Source of the DNA: Minisyncoccota bacterium
GTDB taxonomy: Bacteria > Patescibacteriota > Minisyncoccia > Phycocordibacterales > JAACPR01
Reading direction: 5' to 3'
DNA: 36,018 nt
Assembly: GCA_018061745.1 (NCBI GenBank)
Contig: JAGOTN010000001.1
Location: forward strand, 1 to 36,018
Below are positions 2,781 to 19,442 of the stretch, piece after piece. Both the position numbers and the translations under genes were made by a program. How positions within the stretch are numbered: position 1 is the first letter of the stretch; each line of letters begins with the position of its first letter. A model generated the notes under the pieces. The model had not been told where the DNA came from and made no database searches. It saw only the letters and a list, made by a program, of their open reading frames with translations.

Positions 2781-2789
2781 AGTAAATAA

Positions 2790-2881: not shown

Positions 2882-2913
2882 GTTTTCAACATTATTTTTA
2901 TTTCAGTAGATGT

Positions 2914-2944
2914 TTTAAAAGAAAAATCCGCGGGTTAGGCGGAT
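2914..2944 (-). terminator. Intrinsic terminator ending the minus-strand thyA-folA-dcd-ORF97 operon
   Basis: The stem atccgc/gcggat (2926-2931 / 2939-2944) is followed on the minus strand by TTTTCTTTT. The stop codon of the 97-aa ORF lies in the loop. Confidence 0.6.
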
Positions 2945-3228: not shown

Positions 3229-3266
3229 TTGTTGTGCATTCTACTCACAAACAACCTTTTTGCAAA

Positions 3267-3917: not shown

Positions 3918-3918
3918 T

Positions 3919-4416
3919 TTATTTTTGAACTCGATAATTTAATAATATCGTACTTGGAGATAAGTTTGTACTTGATATTAATTCTAGTTTTTGTCCTAAT
4001 TTCTGTGGCAAAAAGGGAACTCCTTCACCAAACTCAATATCTTCTTCTGTCAGGAATACTTCGTCTACTAGGTTTTTTTCCATAAACAGTTTATATATTT
4101 CAGCCCCTCCGCAAATAGCTATTTCTTGTTCACCTTCTGATTGAAGTCTTTTGATTAGTTCTTCTGGAGATTCATTTGTTGTTTCAACACCCTCAATGTG
4201 TAAATTTTGTCGACTCATAATAATGTTTCGTCTTTCTTTTAAAGGTTTCCCAAACGTTTCAAAAGTTTTTCTTCCCATGACAACAACGCCAGCTTCTTTT
4301 GTTTTTTCTACAAAAAATTTCTTATCCTCAGCACTAGTCCAATTCATAGAATTTTGTTCGGCGGATTTTGCAATGAAACCATCTTTTGATACAGCTGCAA
4401 TGATAAAAACTTTCAT
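3919..4416 (-). CDS. folA: Dihydrofolate reductase
   Basis: The pattern IIAAVSKDGFI...MNWTSAEDKKFF...VVVMGRKTFETFGKPLKERRNIIMS...ICGGAEIY fits DHFR. It starts 4 nt after the thyA-like stop. Confidence 0.85.
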   Translation of the reverse strand: MKVFIIAAVSKDGFIAKSAEQNSMNWTSAEDKKFFVEKTKEAGVVVMGRKTFETFGKPLKERRNIIMSRQNLHIEGVETTNESPEELIKRLQSEGEQEIAICGGAEIYKLFMEKNLVDEVFLTEEDIEFGEGVPFLPQKLGQKLELISSTNLSPSTILLNYRVQK

Positions 4417-4420
4417 AAAA

Positions 4421-5257
4421 TTAAAGCGCTATTTTTAAACCTTTAATGGCAGGCATTGGTTCGTATTGTTTTTGTATTTGAGAAACAATTTCTTCGAGAA
4501 GGGATTCATCTTTTTGTTCTGATCTTTCGAAAGAATTTTCTGGAAGAGTTAGTGTGATTGGTTTGTGATTATTTGTTCTGGAAATAAGTTCTCGAGCTGC
4601 TTCATAATGATTTTCATAAATGTGTGCGTTTGAAATTGAGTGAGAGTATGTTCCAACTTTCACCCCAAGTCTTTGCGCCAAAACATATTGCAAGAAACAA
4701 AAACCAGCGATATCAAAAGGCGCTCCCAGAATCATATCGTTTGAGCGAACTATATTATGCATGTGAAGTTTTCCGGCAATAATATTTATTGTGAAAGTGT
4801 ATGGGCAGGGAACATTGGCTTTTTTCTTTAATGAAAGTCCGTCTTGTGCAGGATCCCATGCGATCACAACTCCGTGTCGTGAGCTAGGTTCTTTTTCTAA
4901 AAGTTCTACTAAAAGTTTTATTTGATCTCGTCCGAAATGTTTTCGCCAACGATATCCGTACGCAACTGTTACGACATCATTTGGATTTGTGAAAGAATCC
5001 CAAATTTTTGTGTGGTTTCTCAAAAAGTCTGCAGGTTTTCGTGCACCAGATAAAAACCACATTTGTTCAACAATTGGACCAGTAACAGGAATTTTTCTAA
5101 GTGTTAAAAGTGGAAAACCATCTTCTTCAGGATTGATTTTAAAATGTAATCCCGGAATCGCAGATGTTTCAAGACCAGTTCTTTCTGAGAATTCTTTGTA
5201 GCCGTTTTCAAGAATGTCTTTTATTAGGCCTTGGTAGATTTGATCAAATTTTGTCAT
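4421..5257 (-). CDS. thyA: Thymidylate-synthase-family (ThyA-like) pyrimidine nucleotide C5-methylase with an atypical active site (PCP, PFD)
   Basis: ThyA blocks present: ERTG, DGFPLLTLRK, EQMWFLSG, YGYRWR, DQIKLL, catalytic Cys in VPCP (codon 4805-4807), RSND, AHIYENH, and the TS-like C-terminal tail YEPMPAIKGLKIAL. The invariant Asn in LGxPFNIA is Asp here (LGAPFDIAGF, codon 4712-4714). Confidence 0.85.
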   Translation of the reverse strand: MTKFDQIYQGLIKDILENGYKEFSERTGLETSAIPGLHFKINPEEDGFPLLTLRKIPVTGPIVEQMWFLSGARKPADFLRNHTKIWDSFTNPNDVVTVAYGYRWRKHFGRDQIKLLVELLEKEPSSRHGVVIAWDPAQDGLSLKKKANVPCPYTFTINIIAGKLHMHNIVRSNDMILGAPFDIAGFCFLQYVLAQRLGVKVGTYSHSISNAHIYENHYEAARELISRTNNHKPITLTLPENSFERSEQKDESLLEEIVSQIQKQYEPMPAIKGLKIAL

Positions 5258-5318
5258 ATCAGTATTTACATTATAATGGTTAGAATATAATCTGCATTAT
5301 AGACACTTTAAGATATTT

Positions 5319-5828
5319 ATGGAAAAGAAAGAAATCAAATACCCATATTTGCCAGGAGGCAGGGAAATCAAATACGTTTCGGCGGATAATCCGTTTATGG
5401 TTGAAGCCAAAAAAGTTCAACAAACCATGTCTACAGATAAGTATTTCTCAACAGGGGCTGTTGTTGTGAAAGACGGAGTGATTGTTGGAAAGGGTGCTAA
5501 CCAATCTCTTTTGCGTACAAAATGGATGATTGAAGCTCACAAAAAATGGGCTTGTATTCGAAGATGGTTCAATATCCCTTCTGGTCAGAAGTATTGGATG
5601 TGTCCTGGATGTTCTCCTTCTAGTCAGCATGCTGAAACTCGTGCTGCAATAGACGCCGAGAAGAAAGGTTTGTCTAAAGACGCTGACATGTATCTTTATG
5701 GTCACTGGTGGTGTTGTGCTCCTTGTTGGGATGCTGTGATTCATGCGGGAATTAAAGATGTGTATCTTCTCGAGGGAAGTGAGATTCTTTTTGATAAAAA
5801 TCATCCAGACAATATTGTTGGTAAATAA
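5319..5828 (+). CDS. comEB: Deoxycytidylate (dCMP) deaminase, ComEB family
   Basis: The zinc motifs HAE (SQHAETRAAI) and PCxxC (CAPCWDAV) are present, together with the extra Cys cluster (CPGC) typical of dCMP deaminases. It is transcribed divergently from the thyA-like gene. Confidence 0.8.
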   Translation: MEKKEIKYPYLPGGREIKYVSADNPFMVEAKKVQQTMSTDKYFSTGAVVVKDGVIVGKGANQSLLRTKWMIEAHKKWACIRRWFNIPSGQKYWMCPGCSPSSQHAETRAAIDAEKKGLSKDADMYLYGHWWCCAPCWDAVIHAGIKDVYLLEGSEILFDKNHPDNIVGK

Positions 5829-5946: not shown

Positions 5947-6546
5947 TCAGGAGCTTCTTTTACTATACTCAGGATCCATTTTAAATTTCCAGTCTGGAAG
6001 TTTGGATTTTGCTTTAGCGTGATCGAAGTAGACTTCGTAGCCTGACTCCTCACATAATTTGTGTAGTAGATCAAACTTCTTAAACAAGTCGTACAAGTAA
6101 CGCAATTTTTCTTGCTCCAATGCAATCAGTCCGGGTTTTGATGGTTTGTAGGTTTGTGTCCAAAGACAGATTTCAGCAGCCTTCACTAGGCTATGAAATG
6201 CATACTCTTTGAATTTATCGAGTGTGGTGATGGTTTTAATTTTAGCACCCATTATTTCGAAGAGCTTGTAAGAATCTCTTTTGAAATCCCAGATAATTAA
6301 CATCATATAGACTATTAGTATTAGTCCTGACACGGAAATGAATCCCAAGATGAGACATGTAACTAACATCAGTACTTCGTATTGGCGCAAGAACGCATAT
6401 ACGAAGACGATAACGATTGCCGGAACGATTGTTTTTAGGAGGTTTGGAAAGATTGCTTTCTTTGCTCTTATTAAACGACCTGCGTGCCAACTTTGTAACA
6501 GGCAGACATTAGTCGTGCCCTCCAATAACATGTTTAATACTGTCAT
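5947..6546 (-). CDS. Hypothetical membrane protein (199 aa, two predicted TM helices plus a soluble C-terminal domain)
   Basis: The hydrophobic stretches are IVPAIVIVFVYAFL and LMLVTCLILGFISVSGLILIVYMMLII. An AAAGG ribosome-binding-like motif lies upstream. The overlapping ORFs in this interval are shadows. Confidence 0.55.
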   Translation of the reverse strand: MTVLNMLLEGTTNVCLLQSWHAGRLIRAKKAIFPNLLKTIVPAIVIVFVYAFLRQYEVLMLVTCLILGFISVSGLILIVYMMLIIWDFKRDSYKLFEIMGAKIKTITTLDKFKEYAFHSLVKAAEICLWTQTYKPSKPGLIALEQEKLRYLYDLFKKFDLLHKLCEESGYEVYFDHAKAKSKLPDWKFKMDPEYSKRSS

Positions 6547-6675
6547 TTTTTCTACCTTTCAATGCTGAATTGTTTATTTCAAAAGCGTAGGGTTTCGGCC
6601 TCTCTGCAAAATGGTTTTCGGCCACTTGCGGATTTTTTCGCTTGTATGTGATTGTCAGCTTCAATCTTCTTTGCA

Positions 6676-6704
6676 AAATTAGAATATATTAAGTGTTGTG
6701 TCAA
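6676..6704 (-). promoter_or_regulatory. Candidate promoter for the membrane-protein gene
   Basis: On the minus strand: TTGACA (6704-6699), a 17-nt spacer, then TAATTT (6681-6676). The leader carries the direct repeat GGCCGAAA(A)CC (plus-strand 6591-6600 and 6613-6623). Confidence 0.35.
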
Positions 6705-6711
6705 TGAAAAG

Positions 6712-6745
6712 TTAAAAGCCGCGGACTTTGTCCGCGGCTTATTTG
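6712..6745 (-). terminator. Intrinsic terminator (GC-rich 11-bp stem) after the 64-aa ORF
   Basis: aagccgcggac (6716-6726) pairs with gtccgcggctt (6730-6740) around loop ttt. A T-run follows on the minus strand. Confidence 0.7.
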
Positions 6746-6933
6746 ATTCTTTTTGATATAACTACCCAACTATAGAATGCAATATTCAACTTTCTGAATG
6801 GTTTGAAGTTTTCAGAGACATGCTCGTGGTTAACTTGAATATGTTCTTGAGAATCTCTTTTTTCCTCAATAACATCTGGAATTGGATCCAAACACATCAA
6901 GCAAATTGACTGGTTAAATCCTTCAGTTTTCAT
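6739..6933 (-). CDS. Hypothetical small protein (64 aa)
   Basis: A short ORF with a strong terminator immediately after it. No motif was recognised. Confidence 0.35.
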   Translation of the reverse strand: MKTEGFNQSICLMCLDPIPDVIEEKRDSQEHIQVNHEHVSENFKPFRKLNIAFYSWVVISKRIK

Positions 6934-7032
6934 CTATTAGCCATAATAGCATTTTTTGTTAAAATGTATTTATAAATTAACTACCATGATTTAACTCTGC
7001 GACAGCCAAATTATTTAACTAACATTACTTTT

Positions 7033-8205
7033 ATGAAAGATATTGAAATTGCAGATTTAATAAAGAAAGAAAACGAGAGACAAAAGAGTGTAATAAATTT
7101 AATTGCTTCAGAAAATTATGTTTCAGAGGATGTTCTAGAAGCACTTGGTTCAAAATTTAATAACAAATATGCAGAAGGATATCCGAATGCTAGATACTAC
7201 GGTGGAAATGAAGTTGTAGATGAAGTTGAATTACTAACACAAAGTCGTGCACTAAAAACTTTTGGATTAAATGAAAATGATTGGGCTGTGAATGTGCAAG
7301 CGCTTTCTGGTTCACCTGCAAACTTGGCAGTTTATTTTGCACTTGTTTCAAAAGGAGGAAAAATTATGGGAATGCGATTGGATCACGGAGGACATTTAAC
7401 TCACGGACACAAAGTTTCTGCGACAGGGGGTTTTTATGAATCAATTCAATACGGAGTTGATAAAGAAACTGAACTTTTAAATTTTGAAGAAATAGAAAAA
7501 ATTGCAGTTGAAGCGAAGCCTGAAATTATTGTTGCGGGATTTACCGCTTATCCAAGAATGATTGATTGGAAAAAGTTTAGAGCTATTGCAGATAAAGTTG
7601 GTGCTTATTTAATGGTGGATATGTCTCATATTTCAGGACTTGTTGCTGGAGGAGTTTATGAATCTCCGTTTCCTTATGCAGACATTGTCACAACAACAAC
7701 TCACAAAACTTTACGAGGTCCTCGAAGTGCTTTAATTTTTGCAAAAAAAGATGACAGAAAATTGAACGAAAAAATAAACAAAGCAGTTTTTCCAGGTCTT
7801 CAAGGTGGTCCGCATATGAATCAAATTGCGGGAGTCGCGGTTGCTTTAAAAGAAGCGAGTACAGATGAGTTTAAAAAATATGCAGAGCAAGTTGTGAAGA
7901 ATGCAAAAACACTTGCAGATACTTTGAGTGAATTGGGTTGGAGAATTGTTTCTGGTGGGACTGATTCACATTTAATTTTAGTTGATACTTGGATGGATGG
8001 AAAAGGAATTTCTGGAAAAGAAGCGAGTGATCGATTAGAGAAAGAGGGAATTATTGTGAACAAGAATACAATCCCAAATGACACTCGAAGTCCTTCTGAT
8101 CCATCTGGAATTCGACTTGGAACTCCTGCTGAAACTACAAACGGAAAAAACGAAAAAGATTTTGAAGAAATTGCAAAACGAATTGATGAGATTTTGCGAA
8201 AATAA
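7033..8205 (+). CDS. glyA: Serine hydroxymethyltransferase
   Basis: The blocks LIASENYVS, YAEGYPNARYYGG and SGSPANLAVY are present, along with the PLP-lysine block TTTTHKTLRGPR. Confidence 0.95.
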   Translation: MKDIEIADLIKKENERQKSVINLIASENYVSEDVLEALGSKFNNKYAEGYPNARYYGGNEVVDEVELLTQSRALKTFGLNENDWAVNVQALSGSPANLAVYFALVSKGGKIMGMRLDHGGHLTHGHKVSATGGFYESIQYGVDKETELLNFEEIEKIAVEAKPEIIVAGFTAYPRMIDWKKFRAIADKVGAYLMVDMSHISGLVAGGVYESPFPYADIVTTTTHKTLRGPRSALIFAKKDDRKLNEKINKAVFPGLQGGPHMNQIAGVAVALKEASTDEFKKYAEQVVKNAKTLADTLSELGWRIVSGGTDSHLILVDTWMDGKGISGKEASDRLEKEGIIVNKNTIPNDTRSPSDPSGIRLGTPAETTNGKNEKDFEEIAKRIDEILRK

Positions 8206-8207
8206 AT

Positions 8208-8630
8208 ATGCAAATTAAATTCAAAAAATTAAATGAAAATGCGATTGCTCCAAAATACGCATACAAATTTGATGCGGGCATGGATTTATTTTGTTTAGAA
8301 GATGTTTCAATTGCACCAAATGAAAGAGTTCAGATTTCAACTGGAATTGCTATGGAAATCCCAGAAAAATATGTAGGTTTGATTTGGGATAAAAGTGGTT
8401 TGTCTCATAAGTCAGGATTGAAAACTGTTGGCGGTGTTGTAGATTCCCAGTATCGTGGAGAAATAAAAGTTGGAATGATAAATTTGAGTGGTGATGTTTT
8501 TAAATTTGAAGCGGGACAAAAAATCGCACAAATGTTAATTCAAAAAGTAAAACAAATTGATTTAATAGAATCTGCCGAGCTTTCAGACACCGACCGCGGG
8601 GAAGGGGGGTTTGGAAGCACTGGAAAATAA
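8208..8630 (+). CDS. dut: dUTP diphosphatase (dUTPase)
   Basis: AGMDL, VVDSQYRGEI and the C-terminal RGEGGFGSTG motif are present. The length is 140 aa. Confidence 0.95.
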   Translation: MQIKFKKLNENAIAPKYAYKFDAGMDLFCLEDVSIAPNERVQISTGIAMEIPEKYVGLIWDKSGLSHKSGLKTVGGVVDSQYRGEIKVGMINLSGDVFKFEAGQKIAQMLIQKVKQIDLIESAELSDTDRGEGGFGSTGK

Positions 8631-8639
8631 ATTTAAAAA

Positions 8640-9335
8640 ATGGAAACAAAAAATAAAAGAGGAAAATTTATTGTGATAGATGGAACCGATGGTTCAGGAA
8701 AAGGTACGCAAACAGAATTACTGGTTGCTGCACTTAAAGATCAGGGAGTTAAAGTTGTTGTTACTGATTTTCCTCAATACGGAAAACCTTCTGCTATTTT
8801 TGTTGAAAAATATTTAAGAGGTGAATATGGAAGCGCGGATGAAGTTGGTGCAAAAAGAGCTTCGCTTTTTTATGCTCTGGATAGATTTGATGAATCTAAA
8901 CAGATGAAACAATGGTTGGATGAAGGATTTTGTATTGTGAGTAATAGGTATGTTTCTGCAAATATGGGACATCAGACTGGAAAAATAAAAGATCCAGTTG
9001 AACGAGATAAATTTTTAGATTGGCTGAATGAATTGGAATTTGAAATTTTTGAAATTCCAAAACCAGATGAAGTTATTTTTCTATATGTTCCACCTGAAGT
9101 TGGGCAAAAACTTGTTGATGAAAAATCTGCTAGAGAATATACAAAAGGCGCAAAAAGAGACATTCACGAGGCTGATTTGAATCATTTAAAAAATGCATCA
9201 GAAGCATATAAATATGTTGCAGAGAAATTTAATTGGAAAACAGTGATCTGTGCTCCAAATGGTGAGATGATGAGTAGAGAGGAGATTCATAAAATTATTT
9301 TAGAAATCTCAAAAAAGATAATTGAAATAAATTAG
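8640..9335 (+). CDS. tmk: Thymidylate (dTMP) kinase, eukaryote/archaeal-like type
   Basis: The P-loop is FIVIDGTDGSGKGTQ, followed by DFPQYGKPSA...YLRG and SNRYVSANMGHQ. Confidence 0.85.
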   Translation: METKNKRGKFIVIDGTDGSGKGTQTELLVAALKDQGVKVVVTDFPQYGKPSAIFVEKYLRGEYGSADEVGAKRASLFYALDRFDESKQMKQWLDEGFCIVSNRYVSANMGHQTGKIKDPVERDKFLDWLNELEFEIFEIPKPDEVIFLYVPPEVGQKLVDEKSAREYTKGAKRDIHEADLNHLKNASEAYKYVAEKFNWKTVICAPNGEMMSREEIHKIILEISKKIIEIN

Positions 9336-9358
9336 AATGCTGTTAGACTAACAAAATC

Positions 9359-11074
9359 ATGCAAGAGAAAATTAAAGAAGTAATAAATGGAATCATAACA
9401 GGGTCAGGGCTTCCTAGTGTTGATTTTATTGTGGAACATCCTGTGGACCTTGCAAATGGTGATTATTCTTCAAACGTAGCAATGGTGCTTGGAAAAAAAC
9501 TTGCTAGAAATCCTGTTGAAATTGCAAATGAAATGGTGAATGGTTTAAACGAGAGTTTTGAATTTGAAGTTGGAAAAGTTGAAGTTGCAGGACCTGGTTT
9601 TATAAATTTTCATCTTTCTAATAAATTTTTTGAAGAAACAGTTCATGATGTAATCAATCAAGGAAAAAATTATGGACGAAATAATCGTTTGAATAGTCAA
9701 AAAACAATTATTGAATTTACAGATCCTAATCCTTTTAAAGTTCTGCACATTGGGCACATGATGAGTAATTTTATTGGAGAAGCACTTTGTAAAATTTCTG
9801 AATGGAATGGCGCAGAAGTGAAGAGAGCAATTTATCAAGGAGATATTGGATTGCATGTTGCGAAAGCTGTTTGGGGAATGATTCAAAATCGTGCAGGGTT
9901 TCCTCACGATGAAGATTCTTTGGAAATAAAAATTCGATTTCTTTCAAACGCATATTCTTTTGGTTCGCATGAATATGAATCTGATAATCAAGCAAAAAAA
10001 GAAATTGATGTTACAAACAAAATGCTTTTTGATAGATCAAATCATGAACTTAATATTTATTATGAAAAGGGAAGAAAATGGAGCATGGAAGCTTTTGAAA
10101 TAATTTATAAAAGACTTGGAACAAAATTCGATTTCTATTTTCTTGAAAGTGATACAGGAGTTTTTGGAAAAGAGGTTGTTGAGAAAAATATTTCAACTGG
10201 AATTTTTGAAGTGAGTGAAGGCGCTGTTGTTTATAAAGCTGAAAAACATGGTCTACATACTCGTGTATTTATAAACTCTCAAGGACTTCCAACTTATGAA
10301 GCAAAGGAACTTGGTTTAGCTAAAACAAAAGCTGAAAAATATGGATATGATCGTTCTATTGTGATAACTGCGAATGAACAAGATCATTATTTCAAAGTTA
10401 TTTTAAAAGCACTTGAGGAAGTTTTTCCAGATTTAGCTGCAAAGACAACTCACATGTCTCACGGAATGTTGAGACTTCCAACTGGAAAAATGAGTTCTAG
10501 AACAGGAGATGTTATTTCTGCGGAAAGTTTAATTGACGACACTCGTGGAAAAGTTTTAGAAAAAATTGAAGGAAGAGAATATGAAGAGGGAGTTAAGGAA
10601 CAGGTTTTGGAAAGAGTTGCTTTGGCTTCAATTAAATATTCAATTTTAAAACAAGCGATTGGTAAGGATATTATTTTTGATTTTGATAAGTCACTTTCTT
10701 TTGAAGGAGATTCAGGTCCTTATCTTCAATACACAACGGTGCGTGCGTCTTCACTTTTGAAAAAAGCTGAAACAGAAGGTTTAGGTCTTGTTGGTGGAGT
10801 TCAACCAGAAAATTGGGAAATAAAAAATGTTGAGAAAATTTTAAATCGTTTTCCTGAAGTTGTCGCAGAAGCATACGACGAACTTGCTCCACAGAAATTA
10901 GTTACTTACTTAACAGAATTAGCGAGTGAGTTTAATACTTTCTATAATTCAGAACAAATTATTGAAAAAGAAAATATAGGAACTTCTTACAAAGTGGGAA
11001 TCACTCAAGCTGTGTTTAATATTTTAGAAAACGGTTTAGGAATTTTAGGAATTGAATTGCCGGAGAGGATGTAG
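9359..11074 (+). CDS. argS: Arginyl-tRNA synthetase
   Basis: The N-terminal Arg-tRNA add-1 domain is present (GPGFINFHL), with the class I HIGH motif (LHIGHMMSN), an MSSRTG (KMSK-like) motif and a C-terminal DALR anticodon-binding region. Confidence 0.95.
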   Translation: MQEKIKEVINGIITGSGLPSVDFIVEHPVDLANGDYSSNVAMVLGKKLARNPVEIANEMVNGLNESFEFEVGKVEVAGPGFINFHLSNKFFEETVHDVINQGKNYGRNNRLNSQKTIIEFTDPNPFKVLHIGHMMSNFIGEALCKISEWNGAEVKRAIYQGDIGLHVAKAVWGMIQNRAGFPHDEDSLEIKIRFLSNAYSFGSHEYESDNQAKKEIDVTNKMLFDRSNHELNIYYEKGRKWSMEAFEIIYKRLGTKFDFYFLESDTGVFGKEVVEKNISTGIFEVSEGAVVYKAEKHGLHTRVFINSQGLPTYEAKELGLAKTKAEKYGYDRSIVITANEQDHYFKVILKALEEVFPDLAAKTTHMSHGMLRLPTGKMSSRTGDVISAESLIDDTRGKVLEKIEGREYEEGVKEQVLERVALASIKYSILKQAIGKDIIFDFDKSLSFEGDSGPYLQYTTVRASSLLKKAETEGLGLVGGVQPENWEIKNVEKILNRFPEVVAEAYDELAPQKLVTYLTELASEFNTFYNSEQIIEKENIGTSYKVGITQAVFNILENGLGILGIELPERM

Positions 11075-11093
11075 AGGGGTGTAATTCACATAG

Positions 11094-11122
11094 TTGACTT
11101 AATGTGCTTTTAGTTGTATTTT
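11094..11122 (+). promoter_or_regulatory. Promoter of small ORF 11135, giving a near-leaderless transcript
   Basis: TTGACT (11094-11099), a 17-nt spacer, then TATTTT (11117-11122). The ATG lies 12 nt after the -10, with no SD. Confidence 0.5.
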
Positions 11123-11134
11123 TGTTTTTGAATT

Positions 11135-11515
11135 ATGAAAATATTTGACAACAAATTAAACAGCGTCTTCGTCAAAAAAAATGACGATGGCAGGATTGCA
11201 TTTACTTGCAAGCAAATGGACGGTTCGTGGGTCGAAATGATTTGCGGATTAAAAAGTGGGGATATTGATTTTACTTCTCACGGTCAGGATCATAAACCGG
11301 AAGGTGAATCATCTGCTGATATTTTCAGAAATGATCATTTGAAAGAATCTGAGTTCGTTCGAAACATAACGAAAGCCACCAGAACTTTTATTCGGGAATG
11401 TGTCACAGATTCTATTTTAGCAGTGTTCCTGCTGGAAGAATTTGGGTACAGGCTCGAAGAACCTTCAGAGGAGTCTTTTGGGTATTGTGACCCTGTTTCT
11501 CCTTGTGGGAAATAG
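11135..11515 (+). CDS. Hypothetical acidic protein (126 aa)
   Basis: A clean ORF with its own promoter and a strong GC-rich terminator. It looks GC-richer than the flanking tRNA-synthetase genes. Confidence 0.55.
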   Translation: MKIFDNKLNSVFVKKNDDGRIAFTCKQMDGSWVEMICGLKSGDIDFTSHGQDHKPEGESSADIFRNDHLKESEFVRNITKATRTFIRECVTDSILAVFLLEEFGYRLEEPSEESFGYCDPVSPCGK

Positions 11516-11527
11516 ATAGACTTTCAA

Positions 11528-11556
11528 AGCGCGCCCTGCAAGGGCGCGCTTTTTTC
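11528..11556 (+). terminator. Intrinsic terminator
   Basis: The 9-bp stem agcgcgccc/gggcgcgct is followed by TTTTTT. Confidence 0.85.
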
Positions 11557-11594: not shown

Positions 11595-11945
11595 ATGAGT
11601 TCACCAAATTCCACTTTTATACCAGCTGTTGTTGGAAAAGATCAAATCCAAAAAGTCTTTATTTCCAAAGAGCCAGAAAAAACCACAGTCTCTTTTTTGA
11701 GACACGATAACAATTGGGTTGTTTGTGAGTATTACAATGCTCGTAGCAAAAGATTTGTTATGTATGTTGAAAAAAACGATGAGTTTTTTCAACCAGAAGG
11801 AACCAATGTCCAGGACTTTGTAAACCTCGATGAGTTGAAGGACATCGTTGAAGAATTGGAATGTTTCCAAGAATCAATTCAATTCCTAAAAAATCCTCTC
11901 AACAAGTGTTTTGAAGCCTATTTGTCGGCACACTTGCCGGAGTAA
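11595..11945 (+). CDS. Hypothetical acidic protein (116 aa)
   Basis: A clean ORF with its own promoter and terminator. The N-terminal pattern VFISKEPEKTTVSFLRHDNNWVV resembles VFVKKNDDGRIAFTCKQMDGSWVE in the preceding ORF. Confidence 0.55.
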   Translation: MSSPNSTFIPAVVGKDQIQKVFISKEPEKTTVSFLRHDNNWVVCEYYNARSKRFVMYVEKNDEFFQPEGTNVQDFVNLDELKDIVEELECFQESIQFLKNPLNKCFEAYLSAHLPE

Positions 11946-11966: not shown

Positions 11967-11995
11967 ACTCGCATTCGTGCGAGTTTTTCTTTTTA
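11967..11995 (+). terminator. Intrinsic terminator with a UUCG tetraloop
   Basis: The 7-bp stem actcgca/tgcgagt has loop ttcg and is followed by TTTTCTTTTT. Confidence 0.8.
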
Positions 11996-12004
11996 AACCA
12001 TCAA

Positions 12005-12033
12005 TTGAAACAAAGCCCTAAATATCGTATGCT
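12005..12033 (+). promoter_or_regulatory. Candidate promoter of ileS (leaderless geometry)
   Basis: TTGAAA (12005-12010), a 17-nt spacer, then TATGCT (12028-12033). ATG 12041 lies 7 nt after the -10. Confidence 0.45.
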
Positions 12034-12040
12034 GTATTTT

Positions 12041-15000
12041 ATGACAAATGAAGCAGGGGAAGACAATAAGAGTCAAGTTGCTTTGAAAGAAGAGCAAATA
12101 TTAGACTTTTGGAATCAAAATAAAATTTTCGAGAAATCTGTTGAAAGAGAGACTAAAAAAGGTGATTTCCTTTTTTATGATGGGCCACCATTTGCAACAG
12201 GACTTCCTCATTATGGGCACATTCTTGCTGGAACAATAAAAGACATAATTCCTCGTTATAAAACTATGAATGGACATAGAGTTGTTCGTCGATGGGGTTG
12301 GGATACTCACGGGCTTCCAATTGAAAACTTAATTCAAAAAGAAAATAATCTTAAAACAAAACATGATGTAGAAAAATTTGGAATTAAAAATTTCAATGAA
12401 GCTGCACGAGCAAATGTTTTTCGTTATCTAGATGAATGGAAAAAAATAATTCCACGAACTGGGCGTTGGGTAGATTTTGAAGACAATTACATAACAATGG
12501 ATTCAAAATATATGCAGTCTGTTTGGTGGATGTGGAAGACTTTATATAAAAAAGGTTTAGCCTATGAAGGATTCAAGACGATGCACATTTCTCCTTTGCT
12601 TGAGACAGCGCTTTCAAACTTTGAAGTAAATCAAGCATATAAAGATATTACTGATATTTCTGCAACAGTTAAATTTGAACTAGTAGATGAAAAGGGAACT
12701 TTTGTTTTGGCTTGGACAACAACTCCTTGGACGCTTCCTGGAAACGTTGCTTTAGCGATAAATAAAAATGTTGAATATGTAAAAGTAAAATTTGAGGAAT
12801 CATTTTATATTGTTGCAAAAGATTTAGCTGAAAAAGTTTTTGGAGAAAAAGAACATCAAATTATTTCTGAAGTTTCTACTGAAGAATTAGTGGGGAAGAA
12901 ATACACTCCTCCTTTTGATTATTATGTTAATGATACTAATTTAGAAAATCGTGAAAACGGTTGGAAAATTTATAATGGAGATTTTGTTACAACAGAAGAT
13001 GGAACTGGAGTTGTTCATATTGCTCCAGCTTTTGGTGAAGACGATTTAAATTTGGGTAAAGAAAATAATTTACCTTTTGTTCAACATGTAAAAATTGACG
13101 GAACAATCAAACCAGAAGCAAAAGATTTTGCAGGTCTTCAAGCAAAACCAAAAGAAGATCCAACTCAAACCGATGTTGAATTTATTAAAGCACTCGCACA
13201 CAAAGGACTTCTTTTTGATAAGAAAAAATATACTCACTCATATCCACATTGTTGGAGAACGGACGCACCACTTTTGAATTACGCGATGTCTTCTTGGTAT
13301 ATAAAAGTTACAGACATTAAAGATAAAATTGTTAAAGAAAATGAAAAAGTAAATTGGGTTCCTGATTTTGTTGGAAGTAATCGTTTTGGTAATTGGTTGA
13401 AAGATGCAAAAGACTGGTCTGTTTCTCGTGCTCGATATTGGGGAACTCCTATTCCAATTTGGAAATCTGAAGACGAAACAGAAATCGCCGTAATCGAATC
13501 AATTTCAGAATTGAGAGAAAAAACAAAAAGCTCAAATACTTTTGTAATAATGCGTCATGGTGAAGCCGATCATAATCTAGAAAACAGAATTTCTGATAGT
13601 AATAATTCTCCAAGTCATTTAACTCAAAGAGGAAAAGATGATGTGGCTCGGGTAGGGGAGAAATTTGCAGATGAAAAATTTGATGCAATTTATTGTTCTC
13701 CACTTTTTAGAACAAAAGAAACTGCAGAAATTGTTGCAGAGAAAATTGGTTTTCCAAAAGAAAATATTATTGAAGATGAAAGATTGAGAGAGGTTCAGAC
13801 TGGTTTTGATGGTCGTCCAATTACAGATTACAGAAGTTATTTTTCATCAAATTCTGAAAAATATGATAAAGCCGCGCCAACAGGTGAGAGTCTTTTGGAT
13901 TTGAAAAAAAGAGCTGGAAATTTTTTGAAAGAAATTGATTCTCAGAATGAAGGAAAAAGAATTTTAGTTATTACACATGAATACACAACATGGTTGATGT
14001 TCTCTGCGAACGAAGGTTTTGATAAAAAAGAAACCATCGAAATAAAAGAAGATAAAGAAGAATTTATCGAGACAGGAAAAACTTTGGAAATAATTCCAAG
14101 CAGACTTCCTGTAAATGATAATTTTGAAATTGATTTACACCGACCATATATCGATGATGTGACTTTTGTTCAAAACGGAAAAATAATGAAAAGAATCCCA
14201 GATGTTTTTGATGGATGGATTGATTCTGGTTCAGTTCCTTTTGCTTCAAATTTTTATCCTGCAAACAAAGAAAGATTTAATCCTGAATCTGGTTTGTTTA
14301 AAAAAACAATAAACTACCCAGCTGACTTTATTGCTGAAGGTTTGGATCAAACTCGAGGATGGTTTTATTCTTTAATTGTTTTGAACACAGCTTTATTTGG
14401 GCATACACCATATAAAAACGTAATAGTTAATGGGCTTGTTTTAGCCGAAGACGGAAGAAAGATGTCTAAAAGTTTAAATAATTATCCAGACATCAATATT
14501 ATTTTTGATAAATATGGTGCGGATGCAATGAGATATTTCTTGGTATCTTCACAAGCTGTAAAATCAGAAGATTTATTATTTTCAGAAAAAGGAGTTGATG
14601 AAGTTTCTAAAAAACTAATTGCCAGACTAAACAATGTTGTTTCATTTTATGAAATGTACAAAGGTGTTTTAGGAGATGTGTCTGTAAAAGAAAGTTCAAA
14701 TGTTTTGGACAAATGGATTCTTGCCAGACTTTCTGAATTGGAAAAACAAATTACCAAATCGCTCGATGCTTATGAGATTGATAAAGCCTCGAGACCTATC
14801 ATGGATTTTGTTGATGATTTATCAACTTGGTATATTCGTCGTTCTCGAGATCGCTTCAAAAACGAGGAAGATGAAGATGCGAAATCTGCAGCAGCAACAA
14901 CAAAATTTGTTTTGAAAAACTTGGCAAAATTGATGGCGCCATTCACTCCGTTTATCGCTGAAGATATTTATCTAAAAGTTCGAGACGAAAATGAATCGGA

Positions 15001-15532
15001 AAGTGTACACCTAGAATCATGGCCGAACCTAAAAAATCTAGATGAAAAAATTATTTCTGAAATGCAAACACTTCGAGAAACAGTAACTCGAGCTCTTGAA
15101 GAGAGAACAAAGGTTGGAATTAAAGTTCGACAACCGCTTGCTTCTGTAACAATTAAAAAACAAGAATTAAAAAGCAAAAATGATTTGTTGGATATTTTGA
15201 AAGACGAATTAAATGTTAAAGAGGTTATGTTTTCTGAAACTCAAGAAGTTGAAATTGTTTTAGATACAAAAATAACTGAAGAATTAAGACTAGAAGGGAA
15301 TGCTCGAGAATTAATTCGTTTTATTCAACAACTTCGAAAAACTTCGGGATTGCAACCAAGTGACGAAATAAAAGCCACCGTTTCAAAGTCTGCAGAAGTT
15401 GAAGTTGGAAGTTTTGTAGATGAAATTAAAAAATCAGTTCGAGCTACACAATTTGCTTTTGAAGAAAACGACGGAGAGTCTTTGCAGATCGGTGAAGTTT
15501 CAATAAATGTAAAAATCAAAAAGATTTCATAA
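12041..15532 (+). CDS. ileS: Isoleucyl-tRNA synthetase (type 2 / eukaryote-like) with an inserted histidine-phosphatase domain
   Basis: Class I HIGH (GLPHYGHIL), the CP1 editing region (TTTPWTLPGN), WSVSRARYWGTPIPIW, KMSKS (GRKMSKSLNNYPD) and the anticodon-binding region are all present. The start is taken at ATG 12041 (MTNEAG...) rather than the track's TTG at 12005, which coincides with the -35 box. Confidence 0.92.
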   Translation: MTNEAGEDNKSQVALKEEQILDFWNQNKIFEKSVERETKKGDFLFYDGPPFATGLPHYGHILAGTIKDIIPRYKTMNGHRVVRRWGWDTHGLPIENLIQKENNLKTKHDVEKFGIKNFNEAARANVFRYLDEWKKIIPRTGRWVDFEDNYITMDSKYMQSVWWMWKTLYKKGLAYEGFKTMHISPLLETALSNFEVNQAYKDITDISATVKFELVDEKGTFVLAWTTTPWTLPGNVALAINKNVEYVKVKFEESFYIVAKDLAEKVFGEKEHQIISEVSTEELVGKKYTPPFDYYVNDTNLENRENGWKIYNGDFVTTEDGTGVVHIAPAFGEDDLNLGKENNLPFVQHVKIDGTIKPEAKDFAGLQAKPKEDPTQTDVEFIKALAHKGLLFDKKKYTHSYPHCWRTDAPLLNYAMSSWYIKVTDIKDKIVKENEKVNWVPDFVGSNRFGNWLKDAKDWSVSRARYWGTPIPIWKSEDETEIAVIESISELREKTKSSNTFVIMRHGEADHNLENRISDSNNSPSHLTQRGKDDVARVGEKFADEKFDAIYCSPLFRTKETAEIVAEKIGFPKENIIEDERLREVQTGFDGRPITDYRSYFSSNSEKYDKAAPTGESLLDLKKRAGNFLKEIDSQNEGKRILVITHEYTTWLMFSANEGFDKKETIEIKEDKEEFIETGKTLEIIPSRLPVNDNFEIDLHRPYIDDVTFVQNGKIMKRIPDVFDGWIDSGSVPFASNFYPANKERFNPESGLFKKTINYPADFIAEGLDQTRGWFYSLIVLNTALFGHTPYKNVIVNGLVLAEDGRKMSKSLNNYPDINIIFDKYGADAMRYFLVSSQAVKSEDLLFSEKGVDEVSKKLIARLNNVVSFYEMYKGVLGDVSVKESSNVLDKWILARLSELEKQITKSLDAYEIDKASRPIMDFVDDLSTWYIRRSRDRFKNEEDEDAKSAAATTKFVLKNLAKLMAPFTPFIAEDIYLKVRDENESESVHLESWPNLKNLDEKIISEMQTLRETVTRALEERTKVGIKVRQPLASVTIKKQELKSKNDLLDILKDELNVKEVMFSETQEVEIVLDTKITEELRLEGNARELIRFIQQLRKTSGLQPSDEIKATVSKSAEVEVGSFVDEIKKSVRATQFAFEENDGESLQIGEVSINVKIKKIS
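13532..14110 (+). other. Histidine phosphatase (phosphoglycerate-mutase-like, RHG) domain inserted in-frame within ileS
   Basis: The motifs are FVIMRHGEADHN (catalytic RHG, Arg codon 13553-13555), LTQRGKDD, YCSPLFRTKETA, ERLREVQTGFDGRP and ILVITHEY (second His). It lies between the IleRS blocks GTPIPIW...ISELREK and DLHRPYIDD (D at 14132). Confidence 0.8.
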
Positions 15533-15533
15533 C

Positions 15534-16130
15534 ATGCATCATGTCTACGAAACAAACGCTTTTGTATTAAGAAATATCCCTCAAGGAGAAGCCGATGCTT
15601 TTCTAACTCTTTTTACAGAAGAACTAGGATTGATTCGTGCAATCGCGCAAGGAATCCGATATGAAAAATCTAAACTTCGTTTCGGGACTCAAAATCTTTC
15701 GATGTGTCATGTTTCTCTTGTTCGCGGAAAGGGAATGTGGAGACTGACAAATGCTTCGCCTCTCGAAAGTAATTTTGCAAACCTAAAACCAGAAATCACA
15801 TCTGTAATTGCGAGAATATTTAAACTTCTAGAAAGATTGGTGATAGGAGAATCAGGTGATGATAAATTATTTTCAATAATCCACTCAGGAATTATTTTTC
15901 TGAAACAAAATCAAGATAAAGAGAATTTTAATAAAGAATTGATTTTAGACATTGAAGCTGTGATTGTTTTAAGAATTTTAAACAGACTAGGCTACATTGG
16001 TTCAACTGAACAGATAAATTTCTATATTTTAAATGATTCTTGGGACGGGGAAGTAATTGAAAAAATGAAAGAAGAACGCAGGCACGCTCTTCAGATCATA
16101 AATTCTGGAATTCGAGAAAGCCAGTTATAG
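15534..16130 (+). CDS. recO: DNA repair protein RecO
   Basis: The N-terminal OB-fold pattern is ETNAFVLRNIPQGEADAFLTLFTEELGLIRAIAQGIR. The length is 198 aa. Confidence 0.8.
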   Translation: MHHVYETNAFVLRNIPQGEADAFLTLFTEELGLIRAIAQGIRYEKSKLRFGTQNLSMCHVSLVRGKGMWRLTNASPLESNFANLKPEITSVIARIFKLLERLVIGESGDDKLFSIIHSGIIFLKQNQDKENFNKELILDIEAVIVLRILNRLGYIGSTEQINFYILNDSWDGEVIEKMKEERRHALQIINSGIRESQL

Positions 16131-16169: not shown

Positions 16170-18110
16170 ATGAATGAACCGCTAGATTTAAGTAATAAAA
16201 ATAACGACGCGCCTAAAAGTCGTGTTACAAAGCTTCAGGAAAAACTTTATTCTCCAAATACTCAATTTCAAATTCGTTCGCGACAGAATTTAGATAGAAA
16301 TCTTAAAGATGTGCCAAATTCTTGGGGTGATATTGAAAATGATAGTTTTTCAAAAATTGTTGGAAAGAAAAAAATGTCTTTATTTACTAAGATAGTTATC
16401 TTTGCATTTGTTTTCTTTCTTGGATCATTGAGTTTTGCTTTATATAAATTTGGAAATAAAGCTCCAGCTATTTATTCAAACACAGTAGATATTTCTGTTG
16501 TTGGTCCTGTTTCTGTTGGAGGAGGAGAGGGAATGACTCTTGATATTATTGTTCAAAATAGAAATTCATTTGCAATAGAAACAGTTGATATTGTTTTGGA
16601 ATATCCAGAAGGAACAAAGACTGATGATTTAAAAACAGAACTAACAAGAGTGCGAGAAGGGCTTGGAGATATTCCTGCAAACTCTATTGTTAAAAAGACA
16701 TACGCAGCAGCTCTTTTTGGAGAAGAAGGTGAGCAAAAAAGTATTGATGTTCGTGCTGAATATAGAGTTCCAAATTCAAATGCAATTTTTGAAACTAAAA
16801 AAACTTTTACACTCGCCCTACAATCTTCTCCGGTTAAACTTTTGGTTGAAACCGTTAAAGAAATTACATCAGGGCAAGCTCTAGCTTTTGATGTAACTGT
16901 TTCGTCAAACTCAAATAGTGATTTAGAAAATGTTCTAGTGACTGTTGATTATCCTTTTGGATTTAACTTTTCTCAATCAACAATTGTTCCAACACAAGCA
17001 AATAATGTTTGGTTTTTTGAAAAACTCTCTCCACAAGAATCAAAAAAATTCACAGTTAGAGGTGCTTTGATTGGACAAAACATGGAAGAAAGAGTTTTCA
17101 AATGGAATGTTGGTTTGGCGGAAACTGATTCAAAAGACGATTTCAAAGTTAAATTTACAACAATTCCTAAATCAATTTCATTAATACGACCTTTTCTTGC
17201 CATGGATCTGGCGATAGATGGAGATTTCGCTGTGGATTTGGTTAGAAGTGGAGGAACGCAAATCGGAGGAAGATTAACTTATACAAATAATACCGGAGGT
17301 GTAATTGTGGATCCACAAATAATTCTAAAACTTGATGGAGAAGTGTTAAATGATTCTACTGTTGAGTTGGCTGGAGGATTCTTTAATTCAAATGACAATA
17401 CTATAACTTGGAATAAAATTACAAAACCTGATTTATTTACAGAGATTGCAGTTGGTCAATCTGAGACTTTAACTTTTAATTTTAAAACAAAAACTTTAGC
17501 GACAAGGCAAGCTGTTTACAAAAATCCTGAAATTATCGTGAGCTCAGTTATTACAGGAAAAAGAATCGGGGAAGGAAGCGTTCCTGAAGATATAAAAGTA
17601 GAAGCTGCTAAAAGAATTAAAATTCAATCTGACGTTGCTTTAAATGCTGTAACAACATTCGCAGGTGGTCCATTTGAAAACACTGGTCCAATTCCACCAA
17701 AAGTAGAAAATGACACTACTTACACTGTGACTTTAAATTTAACAAACTCTTCAAACGCACTTGAGAGAGGAAAAGTTAGAGCAACACTTCCTCCTTATGT
17801 TCGTTGGAACAATAAAATTTTTCCAAGTAATGAAAATGTAAATTACGACGCGGCTTCTCGTTCTATCGAATGGGATTTGGGAAATGTTAGAGAACATGTC
17901 GGATTTATTGATCCTGCAAGATCTATCTCTGTCCAACTTACTCTTAATCCTTCAACTAGTCAGCTTGGAGATAGTCCTGCACTTTTGATCAATCCAACTT
18001 TTACAGGGTATGATACTTTCACTCAAACTGAATTAAGCCAAATTTCAGAAGCGCCAACAACAGATATGGGTAGATTATCAGATTTAGATAATGCAAAAGT
18101 TGTGCAGTAA
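16170..18110 (+). CDS. Hypothetical membrane-anchored protein with a large beta-rich extracytoplasmic domain (646 aa)
   Basis: A cytoplasmic N-terminus of about 70 aa is followed by a single TM helix (LFTKIVIFAFVFFLGSLSFALY) and then a long Thr/Val/Asn-rich region suggesting repeated Ig/CARDB-like folds. Confidence 0.6.
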   Translation: MNEPLDLSNKNNDAPKSRVTKLQEKLYSPNTQFQIRSRQNLDRNLKDVPNSWGDIENDSFSKIVGKKKMSLFTKIVIFAFVFFLGSLSFALYKFGNKAPAIYSNTVDISVVGPVSVGGGEGMTLDIIVQNRNSFAIETVDIVLEYPEGTKTDDLKTELTRVREGLGDIPANSIVKKTYAAALFGEEGEQKSIDVRAEYRVPNSNAIFETKKTFTLALQSSPVKLLVETVKEITSGQALAFDVTVSSNSNSDLENVLVTVDYPFGFNFSQSTIVPTQANNVWFFEKLSPQESKKFTVRGALIGQNMEERVFKWNVGLAETDSKDDFKVKFTTIPKSISLIRPFLAMDLAIDGDFAVDLVRSGGTQIGGRLTYTNNTGGVIVDPQIILKLDGEVLNDSTVELAGGFFNSNDNTITWNKITKPDLFTEIAVGQSETLTFNFKTKTLATRQAVYKNPEIIVSSVITGKRIGEGSVPEDIKVEAAKRIKIQSDVALNAVTTFAGGPFENTGPIPPKVENDTTYTVTLNLTNSSNALERGKVRATLPPYVRWNNKIFPSNENVNYDAASRSIEWDLGNVREHVGFIDPARSISVQLTLNPSTSQLGDSPALLINPTFTGYDTFTQTELSQISEAPTTDMGRLSDLDNAKVVQ

Positions 18111-18134: not shown

Positions 18135-19442
18135 ATGATAAATGACAAGATGGAGAAGATAGTTTCACTCGCAAAACGCCGTGGTTTTGTATTTCAAGGC
18201 TCTGAAATTTATGGTGGGTTGGCTGGTACTTGGGATTATGGTCACTATGGTGTGGCTCTAAAAAACAACATCAAACAACTTTGGTGGAAACAATTCGTTC
18301 TTGATCGTGAAGATATGTACGGTCTTGATGCTGCTATTTTAATGAACCCGAGAACTTGGGAGGCGAGTGGGCATGTGGGTGGTTTTGCAGATCCAATGGT
18401 GGAATGTAAAAAATGTAAAAGAAGATTTCGTGCTGATCATTTAGAAGATAAAAATAAGTGTCCAGAATGTGCAGGGGAATTAGGTGAAGAAAAACAATTC
18501 AACATGATGTTCAAGACACAGGTCGGAGCATCAGAAGATGAATCTTCAATTGCATACTTGCGACCAGAAACAGCACAAGGTATTTTTGTAAACTTTAAAA
18601 ATGTCATGGACACAATGCATCCAAAACTTCCTTTTGGTATTGCGCAGATCGGTAAAGCTTTTAGAAACGAAATTGCACCTCGCGATTTTATTTTCAGAGT
18701 TCGTGAATTTGAACAAATGGAAATTGAATATTTTGTTAATCCTGAAAATTGGAAAGAAAATTTTGAGGCGCTTGTAAAAGACACAAAACAATTTTTCACA
18801 ACACTCGGACTTTCTCCTGAAAATATTCATGAACTGGAAATAGAAAAAGAAGATTTGGCTCACTATTCACAAAGAACAATAGATTTTGAATTCGATTATC
18901 CTTTTGGAAAAAAAGAATTATCAGGTCTTGCTTATAGAACAGATTTTGATTTAAAGAGTCACATTGAAGCTTCAGGACAAAAATTAGATTATTTAGATCA
19001 AGAAACAAATGAAAAAATTATTCCACATGTTATCGAACCATCATTTGGTATTGATAGATTAGTTTTGGCAATTCTTTCTGATGCGTATGCTGAAGATGAA
19101 ATGGATGGGGAAGTTCGAACTTATTTAAAATTAGCTCCGGCTGTGGCGCCTATAAAAGTTGCAGTATTTCCACTTTTGAAAAATCGACCAGAACTTCAAG
19201 AAAAAGCGCGGGAAGTTTATGCAAAAATTAAAAAAGAAATTCCACAAATTATTTTTGATGATAATGGAAATGTAGGGAAGCGATACCGACGACAAGATGA
19301 AATCGGAACACCTTTTTGTATCACTATCGATTTCGAAACATTAGAACAAAATTCTGGTGTGACTGTGCGTGATCGTGATTCTGGAAAACAAGACAGGGTT
19401 TCTGAAGATGATTTGATAAGTTATTTGAAAGGACGACTCTAA
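18135..19442 (+). CDS. glyQS: Glycyl-tRNA synthetase (dimeric class II form)
   Basis: RRGFVFQGSEIYGGLAGTWDYGHYG, the Zn-ribbon insertion CKKCKRRFRADHL...CPEC, the class II motif FRNEIAPRDFIFRVREFEQMEIEYF and a C-terminal anticodon-binding domain are present. Confidence 0.95.
   Translation: MINDKMEKIVSLAKRRGFVFQGSEIYGGLAGTWDYGHYGVALKNNIKQLWWKQFVLDREDMYGLDAAILMNPRTWEASGHVGGFADPMVECKKCKRRFRADHLEDKNKCPECAGELGEEKQFNMMFKTQVGASEDESSIAYLRPETAQGIFVNFKNVMDTMHPKLPFGIAQIGKAFRNEIAPRDFIFRVREFEQMEIEYFVNPENWKENFEALVKDTKQFFTTLGLSPENIHELEIEKEDLAHYSQRTIDFEFDYPFGKKELSGLAYRTDFDLKSHIEASGQKLDYLDQETNEKIIPHVIEPSFGIDRLVLAILSDAYAEDEMDGEVRTYLKLAPAVAPIKVAVFPLLKNRPELQEKAREVYAKIKKEIPQIIFDDNGNVGKRYRRQDEIGTPFCITIDFETLEQNSGVTVRDRDSGKQDRVSEDDLISYLKGRL

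Follow-up and report, generated by a model that had tools for sequence, protein, structure and literature searches.

The stretch of DNA analysed here (the window) comprises positions 1 to 36,018 of the forward strand of contig JAGOTN010000001.1 (assembly GCA_018061745.1) of a Minisyncoccota bacterium, a member of the candidate phyla radiation (CPR; Paceibacteria) with a tiny genome, and contains an ileS gene in which the coding sequence of a histidine phosphatase is nested within that of a type-2 isoleucyl-tRNA synthetase (IleRS). The nested domain is very probably an active phosphatase that was captured from a neighbouring gene, and, as judged by homologous sequences, the nested architecture is lineage-wide, with hundreds of relatives. 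As the best explanation overall it is tentatively proposed that a phosphomonoesterase was captured from its neighbour and kept on IleRS, where it would act on a small phosphomonoester substrate.

The nested phosphatase and its host synthetase

The gene is a single uninterrupted open reading frame (ORF) at 12005-15532 on the plus strand, 1175 amino acids (aa) long when counted from TTG and, as the original prediction had stated, free of stop codons and frameshifts. Pfam finds tRNA-synt_1 in two stretches, Anticodon_1 and DUF5915, with His_Phos_1 (PF00300) between the synthetase halves at 111.4 bits (E 5.6e-32, cut-off 21.7), while the excised segment alone reaches 116.3 bits (E 1.7e-33). This bears out the intact histidine phosphatase domain that had been predicted inside IleRS. 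The motifs quoted in that prediction (VIMRHGEADHN, LTQRGKDD, SPLFRTKETA, ERLREVQTGFDG and LVITHEY) are all present in the translation, and its coordinates, 13532-14110, correspond to aa 510-702 of the ORF, the insert really ending slightly beyond them, at 14128. In a phmmer alignment to yeast IleRS (8wnd), query residue 509 corresponds to residue 494 and query residue 709 to residue 498, so that the insert (about 199 aa) stands in place of a 3-residue link. The same columns hold a mean of 6.7 residues in 23 insert-less IleRS of CPR bacteria, in agreement with the short linker that had been given as normal for type-2 enzymes. Query residue 507 pairs with residue 499 of Candida IleRS, in which residues 473-534 form the CP3 subdomain (CP, connective peptide) (PMC7191050), and by this alignment the insertion site falls inside the CP3 surface subdomain. 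The topology of CP3 varies between IleRS types, with three helices in S. aureus, a Zn-binding module in T. thermophilus and a beta-beta-alpha-alpha arrangement in Candida (PMC7191050), which fits the earlier description of the site as structurally permissive. In the window protein all four cysteines of the CP3 zinc knuckle are lost (WKSEDETE, 13466-13489, and FVQNGK, 14165-14182); several relatives retain a CxxC...CxC knuckle on either side of the same insert. The gene is organised as follows:

12005..15532, plus strand: ileS::His_Phos gene, type-2 isoleucyl-tRNA synthetase with nested phosphatase; likely true start ATG 12041 (M13)
12041..13531, plus strand: IleRS N-terminal part, with the first half of the Rossmann fold, CP core, CP1 editing domain, CP2 and first half of CP3 (RYWGTPIPIWKSEDETEIAVIESISELREK)
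12209..12220, plus strand: HIGH signature H69-Y70-G71-H72 of the IleRS synthetic site (conservation in 113 sequences)
13532..14128, plus strand: whole inserted segment relative to insert-less type-2 IleRS, aa 510-708, replacing yeast IleRS residues 494-498
13544..14032, plus strand: His_Phos_1 (PF00300) domain, aa 514-676 (Pfam E 5.6e-32; AlphaFold2 (AF2) model; Foldseek)
13553..13561, plus strand: RHG motif codons R517-H518-G519, H518 being the predicted phospho-accepting nucleophile (invariant 119/119; role from the superfamily mechanism)
13574..13576, plus strand: N524 codon, conserved Asn of the phosphate pocket (119/119)
13709..13711, plus strand: R569 codon, second phosphate-binding Arg, in SPLFRTKETA (119/119)
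13790..13792, plus strand: E596 codon, predicted general acid, in ERLREVQTG (119/119)
13976..13978, plus strand: H658 codon, second active-site His, in LVITHEY (119/119)
14033..14128, plus strand: C-terminal strand and return linker of the insert, aa 677-708 (...FIETGKTLEIIPSRLPVNDNFEI) (AF2 strand 693-696; alignment with standalone proteins)
14129..15532, plus strand: IleRS C-terminal part, with the second half of CP3 (DLHRPYIDD...KRIPDVFDGWIDSGSVP), second half of the Rossmann fold, KMSKS loop, anticodon-binding domain and DUF5915
14459..14473, plus strand: KMSKS signature K819-S823 (conservation in 113 sequences)

The residues of the phosphatase active site (R517, H518, G519, N524, R569, E596 and H658) are invariant across all 119 full-length nested sequences, and R569, E596, H658 and N524 are invariant also in 43 of the 43 sequences of an insert-only alignment. 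Mean identity in the 119 sequences is 45% for the insert, 68% for the IleRS catalytic core and 50% for the anticodon and C-terminal region, the least conserved stretch being aa 677-708 (38%), whose strand aligns with the C-terminal GELRKL strand of free-standing proteins. The catalytic residues are thus under strong purifying selection, and for this reason a bifunctional protein is to be expected and not a decayed fusion, as had been supposed from the window sequence; a decayed pseudo-domain was set aside as the main interpretation in view of the invariant residues. The AF2 model of the insert alone has a pLDDT of 94.7 and is matched by Foldseek to PhoE, PspA, dPGM (cofactor-dependent phosphoglycerate mutase), TIGAR and CobC with E 1e-11 to 1e-14 and TM-scores of 0.66-0.78. 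The nearest solved structure is PhoE/YhfR, both by sequence (1EBB/1H2E, E 2e-14, 28% identity) and by fold (1H2E, E 2.4e-14, TM 0.72), followed in both respects by the phosphoserine phosphatase of H. thermophilus and then by dPGMs, TIGAR and CobC. The nested domains are acidic, with a median isoelectric point (pI) of 5.6.

Several more specific identities were considered and rejected. A dPGM has an HGN motif after the second His and about 230-250 aa including a C-terminal tail. The insert has ITHEY instead of HGN, a core of about 165 aa in a module of about 190 aa, and scores far below the relevant cut-offs (dPGM_arch, 64-68 bits vs 225; pgm_1, 36.5 vs 81.7; GpmB, 52-58 vs 261). It likewise falls short of the models for CobC alpha-ribazole phosphatase (TIGR03162, 71-76 bits vs 162.9), SixA (TIGR00249, 37-41 bits vs 74.5, the match spanning the first ~75 residues only) and PspA (57 bits vs a cut-off of 350). 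Since all curated equivalog cut-offs are missed and the second His lies in HEY and not in HGN, the insert is classified as a small PhoE-like branch-1 histidine phosphatase and not as a phosphoglycerate mutase.

The host is recognised by the ileS equivalog model of NCBIfam (TIGR00392, 865.7 bits vs a cut-off of 621.4). Its best PDB matches in phmmer are yeast IleRS and P. megaterium IleRS2 (E about 1e-212), type-1 enzymes following at 1e-97 or weaker, and the type-2 C-terminal domain DUF5915 lies at aa 994-1173. H69, G71, K819, K822, T238-T240, W242, H338 and D347 are invariant in 113 sequences, and H72, M820 and S821 are conserved in at least 90% of them; the CP1 editing domain is marked by WTTTPWTLPGN, H338 and D347. 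The AF2 model of the full-length protein (pLDDT 91.1, pTM 0.84) finds IleRS2 of P. megaterium and yeast IleRS as top Foldseek matches, with TM-scores of 0.8-0.9 normalised to the target. The mupirocin-resistance enzymes MupA and MupB (NF000257/NF000258) were rejected as identities at 712-728 bits vs a cut-off of 1900. The TTG at 12005 is a mechanical ORF start, with in-frame ATGs downstream at 12029 and 12041. Because M13, encoded by the ATG at 12041 and invariant, aligns with the start position of 113 homologues, the actual protein probably has 1163 aa.

Distribution and origin of the nested form

Among the best 120 full-length homologues listed (53-85% identity), all contain PF00133 together with PF00300, and all are 1150-1325 aa long except for two fragments (852 and 940 aa). 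They are encoded on contigs of up to 797 kb from NCBI, JGI, ENA and Logan. Absence of the insert from all close relatives, a possibility raised in the original prediction, is excluded, since it is present in every one of them. When one genome per species of GTDB was scanned with an insert-only profile, 80 loci were returned, and in 80 of 80 a single in-frame tblastn high-scoring segment pair runs across the N-terminal part of IleRS, the insert and the C-terminal part. The lineages with the nested form include Yonath-, Nomura-, Vogel-, Zambryski-, Taylor-, Lloyd-, Sung-, Wolfe-, Jorgensen- and Magasanikbacteria, Paceibacteria and Minisyncoccia, and the proteins are named in databases as isoleucyl-tRNA synthetase, class I tRNA ligase or hypothetical protein.

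The same phosphatase clade also exists as free-standing genes. An exhaustive profile search gave 360 clusters (50% identity) at E <= 1e-30, complete proteins of about 190 aa among them, and a metagenome scan with a narrow alignment of standalone sequences returned 80 loci, of which 45 contain a complete standalone gene of 187-212 aa. In 31 of these 45 an insert-less IleRS (923-1005 aa where complete) follows directly at +1, and in 34 it lies within two genes; ArgRS is found at -1 in 27 and within three genes upstream in 32, while RecO and then a DUF11-like protein of about 620 aa lie downstream. In the split lineages the free-standing gene is packed 1-3 nt from argS and ileS, as in locus L161, where independent gene calls give argS at 6303-7997, His_Phos at 8001-8570 and ileS at 8572-11367, the last encoding 931 aa without PF00300 and being followed by recO, a CLIPPER/DUF11 protein and a class II synthetase. 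CLIPPER is the collection's name for PF01345 in this homologue of the window protein at 16170-18110. Two further arrangements were noticed among the free-standing forms, namely tandem genes upstream of ileS (L146, 1765-2352 and 2369-2947) and two-domain standalone proteins (P0255, P0265). The corresponding genes of the window are:

9359..11074, plus strand: argS, conserved upstream neighbour (Pfam, synteny)
12005-15532, plus strand: ileS with insert (Pfam)
15534..16130, plus strand: recO, conserved downstream neighbour (Pfam, synteny), marking ileS as the positional orthologue of insert-less ileS
16170-18110: DUF11 protein, 646 aa, weak DUF11 match (Pfam)
18135-19442: class II synthetase (Pfam)

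The window thus has the gene order of the split locus (argS, ileS, recO, DUF11, class II synthetase) minus the intergenic phosphatase gene. Among 81 nested loci, ArgRS lies within three genes upstream in 42 and RecO at +1 in 39, and an additional small His_Phos ORF near ileS was found in only one. Because the flanks match and such an extra ORF is nearly always missing, the split and nested forms share one locus and are nearly mutually exclusive, the nested ileS being the positional orthologue of the ordinary gene. This positional orthology, with argS...recO flanks as for insert-less ileS, supports the view that the nested gene is the housekeeping ileS. The order ileS-recO-DUF11-class II synthetase is kept in nested and split lineages alike. 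In the argS-ileS interval of the window, where split lineages have the phosphatase gene, there are two ORFs, at 11135-11515 (126 aa) and 11595-11945 (116 aa), each with a terminator-like hairpin behind it (11526-11552 and 11967-11984). Searches of Pfam, PADLOC and PHROG gave no match for either, and the two are at most weakly alike (E 0.045); the closest genome locus (L001) likewise has two small ORFs in this interval.

As the comparison shows, the insert belongs to a CPR-specific clade of phosphatases of about 190 aa, present as a free-standing gene between argS and ileS in sister lineages; in the window lineage the gene is missing from this interval and its coding sequence lies inside ileS, so that synthetic, editing and phosphatase sites are combined in one polypeptide. 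In an unbootstrapped neighbour-joining (NJ) tree of the domain, the main nested clade with the CP3 insertion is monophyletic and sister to one standalone subgroup. Repeated local capture, in which each nested lineage would have taken up the gene of its own nearest split relative, is not supported, no co-phylogeny signal being seen (Spearman rho -0.6 to +0.3).

Insertion sites were mapped in the 150 best matches of the phosphatase-clade search. CP3 (site A) is by far the commonest site in IleRS, with tandem doubles in P0216, P0248, P0251 and P0256. Site B lies between ...DSGSMP...YPF and PADFIAEGLDQTRGW (P0162, P0171, P0230), and site C at the junction with the anticodon-binding domain (P0171, P0230, P0241, P0260). 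Valyl-tRNA synthetase (ValRS) also serves as a host: one protein (P0281, 1538 aa, valS 849 bits) carries two phosphatase copies and another (P0140) four, of which one stands directly after WGHRIPVW, the homologous CP3 position. Overall, ValRS of related bacteria (P0281, P0140, P0285) have one to four copies, a further site lying at the junction of CP core and CP2. The clade is moreover fused C-terminally to Sua5/YciO/YrdC (TsaC, threonylcarbamoyl-AMP synthase) in P0224, P0298-P0300, L144 (1615-2943) and L115 (1-1254). The catalytic set is kept in almost all extra copies. Beside the fusion in L115 lie a 511-aa protein (2628-4160) that by eye resembles a CCA-adding enzyme, with a GGCVRD motif, and a 478-aa protein (4304-5737) that by eye resembles a tRNA-guanine transglycosylase. 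One IleRS (P0127, 1325 aa, 51% identity) holds two nested enzymes, a GNAT/Acetyltransf_3 domain at aa 285-415 in the CP1 region and His_Phos at aa 664-827.

Function of the phosphatase and competing explanations

By analogy with the superfamily, His518 would attack a terminal phosphate held by Arg517, Arg569, Asn524 and His658, while Glu596 would protonate the leaving group, and the resulting phospho-histidine intermediate would then be hydrolysed. That the substrate is a small molecule may be proposed with some reserve. Because the nearest relatives are small-substrate phosphatases and the surface is acidic, a small phosphomonoester is favoured, plausibly of nucleotide type as for the nearest characterised relatives. 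The fusion would enforce 1:1 co-expression and co-localisation with IleRS, adding no step to aminoacylation.

A number of observations weigh against this explanation. The nestings are independent of one another (three sites in IleRS, tandem copies, two to four copies in ValRS, fusions to TsaC/YrdC), and they speak for selection of the physical attachment to these synthetases as such, which a pure model of neighbour capture and co-expression does not predict; for freely diffusing small substrates, tethering would bring little kinetic benefit. That the clade was joined repeatedly and specifically to IleRS, ValRS and TsaC, with several intact copies, is better explained by a macromolecular or enzyme-bound substrate, and for this reason the alternatives discussed below are kept. 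Furthermore, nested and split lineages are interleaved in an NJ tree of the host IleRS. The shared synteny extends to unrelated genes (recO, DUF11), so that adjacency by itself says little about coupling in either direction. In CPR genomes YrdC is also joined to an MGMT DNA-binding domain, TruB, 2H phosphoesterase, Nudix, GNAT and methylpurine DNA glycosylase; with so many unrelated partners, fusion appears to be promiscuous in these genomes and the YrdC fusion becomes a weaker functional clue.

The first alternative, which is considered unlikely, is healing of the tRNA 3' end, whereby a 3'-phosphate, a 3'-pyrophosphate or an opened 2',3'-cyclic phosphate would be removed from A76 on the synthetase. 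The idea goes back to the original prediction, which had also named a dinucleotide by-product as a candidate substrate. The flexible CCA end, which already moves between the synthetic and editing sites, would pass through the phosphatase as a third site before it is charged; in class Ia editing synthetases this end travels tens of angstroms. The CCA end of tRNA is also a target of toxic RelA/SpoT homologues, which pyrophosphorylate it, a modification that dedicated hydrolases reverse. Tethering becomes kinetically meaningful when a macromolecular substrate sits on the same protein. Moreover, enzymes that handle tRNA (IleRS at three sites, ValRS, TsaC/YrdC) have been the specific and recurrent hosts of the clade, with up to four copies per protein, nearly all of which keep intact catalytic residues. 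It is a doubtful prospect, of about the same weight, that class Ia synthetases of CPR bacteria have a third active site that repairs the tRNA 3' end, for instance after attack by tRNA-targeting toxins; such repair would account for the operon partnership with ileS, the repeated nesting in IleRS and ValRS (up to four copies) and the TsaC fusion. However, the nearest relatives use small molecules, the nested domain is acidic, the differing insertion sites imply no fixed conserved geometry, TsaC does not handle the 3' end, and we know of no member of the histidine phosphatase superfamily that acts as an RNA-end phosphatase. A link to defence systems or phages was examined and rejected: the insert has no PADLOC defence-family match (one standalone homologue gives a marginal match only), its sole PHROG match is a generic family of unknown function and not one specific to phages, and no viral contig was found to encode the clade.

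Product clearing, an improbable alternative, would place the benefit at amino-acid activation, which would be pulled forward by hydrolysis of the pyrophosphate (PPi) or of a phosphoanhydride by-product of adenylate-forming enzymes. It is established chemistry that IleRS, ValRS and TsaC/YrdC all convert ATP and an acid to acyl-AMP and PPi, and phosphoanhydrides are cleaved by some members of the superfamily, such as E. coli AppA and the inositol-pyrophosphate phosphatase domains. Yet the nearest branch-1 relatives are phosphomonoesterases, tethering is of little advantage for a fast-diffusing ion, and the 150 best matches include no other adenylate-forming synthetase, for instance the adjacent ArgRS, as a host.

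A similarly low probability is given to a non-catalytic module, either a sensor of a phosphate ligand with allosteric control or a structural or interaction domain. Tandem and multiple copies recall regulatory ligand-binding domains, and promiscuous fusion in CPR would be in keeping with such a role. Against this, Glu596, His518 and all pocket residues are invariant in 119 of 119 sequences and almost all extra copies keep them, while enzyme-derived scaffolds usually lose such residues; in addition, the free-standing homologues are ordinary single-domain enzymes.

Somewhat less probable still is a protein phosphatase that removes an inhibitory phosphate from the synthetase or a partner, for example reversing the action of a HipA-type kinase on the KMSKS loop of class I synthetases. 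The superfamily includes the protein phosphatases SixA, PGAM5 and Sts-1, of which SixA gives a weak NCBIfam match (37-41 bits), a cis-acting enzyme would gain from tethering, and sites A, B and C bracket the KMSKS region in primary sequence. Against this, the cut-off for SixA is missed and the 50 best structural matches include no protein phosphatase. The loci examined showed no kinase partner, self-repair needs no multiple copies, and the TsaC fusion would be left unexplained.

Finally, an artefact or selfish element has a negligible probability: a chimeric assembly, about which the original prediction had been cautious, is ruled out by the same in-frame architecture in hundreds of independent assemblies (NCBI, JGI, ENA, Logan) and by the GC content of the insert (0.32-0.33), equal to that of the flanks, and an intein or other mobile in-frame element by the finding of no Hint, intein or homing endonuclease family in a Pfam search of the 1175-aa protein. 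The constant length of the region (266-276 aa) likewise speaks against an artefact or selfish element.

Significance and relation to known systems

Aminoacyl-tRNA synthetases are among the best-studied enzymes, and the modules inserted in them (CP1 editing domain, Zn knuckles) all bear on the fidelity of tRNA charging. A phosphatase in IleRS with an intact catalytic set would add to the translation apparatus an accessory activity that is new. The nested form is conserved in much of the Paceibacteria, and it has counterparts in the tightly packed free-standing gene beside ileS and in the copies carried by ValRS and TsaC. Should the phosphatase be coupled to the synthetase, it would point to an unrecognised step of tRNA or adenylate metabolism in minimal genomes, with tRNA-end repair, product clearance and reversal of inhibitory phosphorylation as candidates. 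If it is not coupled, the gene would be a clean natural case of a neighbour captured into a surface loop of an essential enzyme, in which the surviving split and nested states would be useful for studying the evolution of domain insertion and the site as a permissive position for IleRS engineering. The arrangement would surprise a synthetase specialist, and it can be tested directly. In agreement with the original prediction, which knew of no phosphatase within an aminoacyl-tRNA synthetase, full-text literature searches and a 2026 survey of domain insertions gave no published description of a phosphatase-bearing synthetase.

The families of the two parts are well known, as is the insertion of whole domains into the CP regions of synthetases (CP1, NF040702). 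With the type-2 enzymes P. megaterium IleRS2 (8C8U/V), yeast IleRS (8WND) and T. thermophilus IleRS (1ILE), the window protein has in common the ileS score, the HIGH, KMSKS and editing motifs and DUF5915, but its CP3 holds a 199-aa enzyme domain where those IleRS show a link of 3 residues or a small module that is helical or binds Zn. On the side of the phosphatase, PhoE (YhfR) of Geobacillus stearothermophilus (1EBB, 1H2E), the H. thermophilus phosphoserine phosphatase PspA (4IJ5) and the alpha-ribazole phosphatase CobC (6NRU/6E4B) have the same fold (TM 0.72-0.77), share the RHG motif, the Asn, the second Arg, the Glu and the second His, and are similar in size (~190-210 aa) with a minimal cap subdomain. 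Unlike them, the window phosphatase is nested in another enzyme, and the identity is only 20-28%. The hosting of a whole enzyme domain has a curated precedent in the CPR-type IleRS of NF040702 (ileS_w_GNAT), with another inserted family at another site; the window IleRS reaches 311.8 bits vs a cut-off of 1999 and has no acetyltransferase match in Pfam, and NCBIfam holds a curated model for the GNAT-bearing form and none for the phosphatase-bearing one. A branch-1 histidine phosphatase joined to a nucleic-acid enzyme is known from the Rv2228c-type RNase H/CobC-like acid phosphatase (NF005567), to whose phosphatase half the insert matches with 70 bits (below the cut-off of 326). There the two enzymes are fused end-to-end, whereas in the window the phosphatase is nested within the synthetase.

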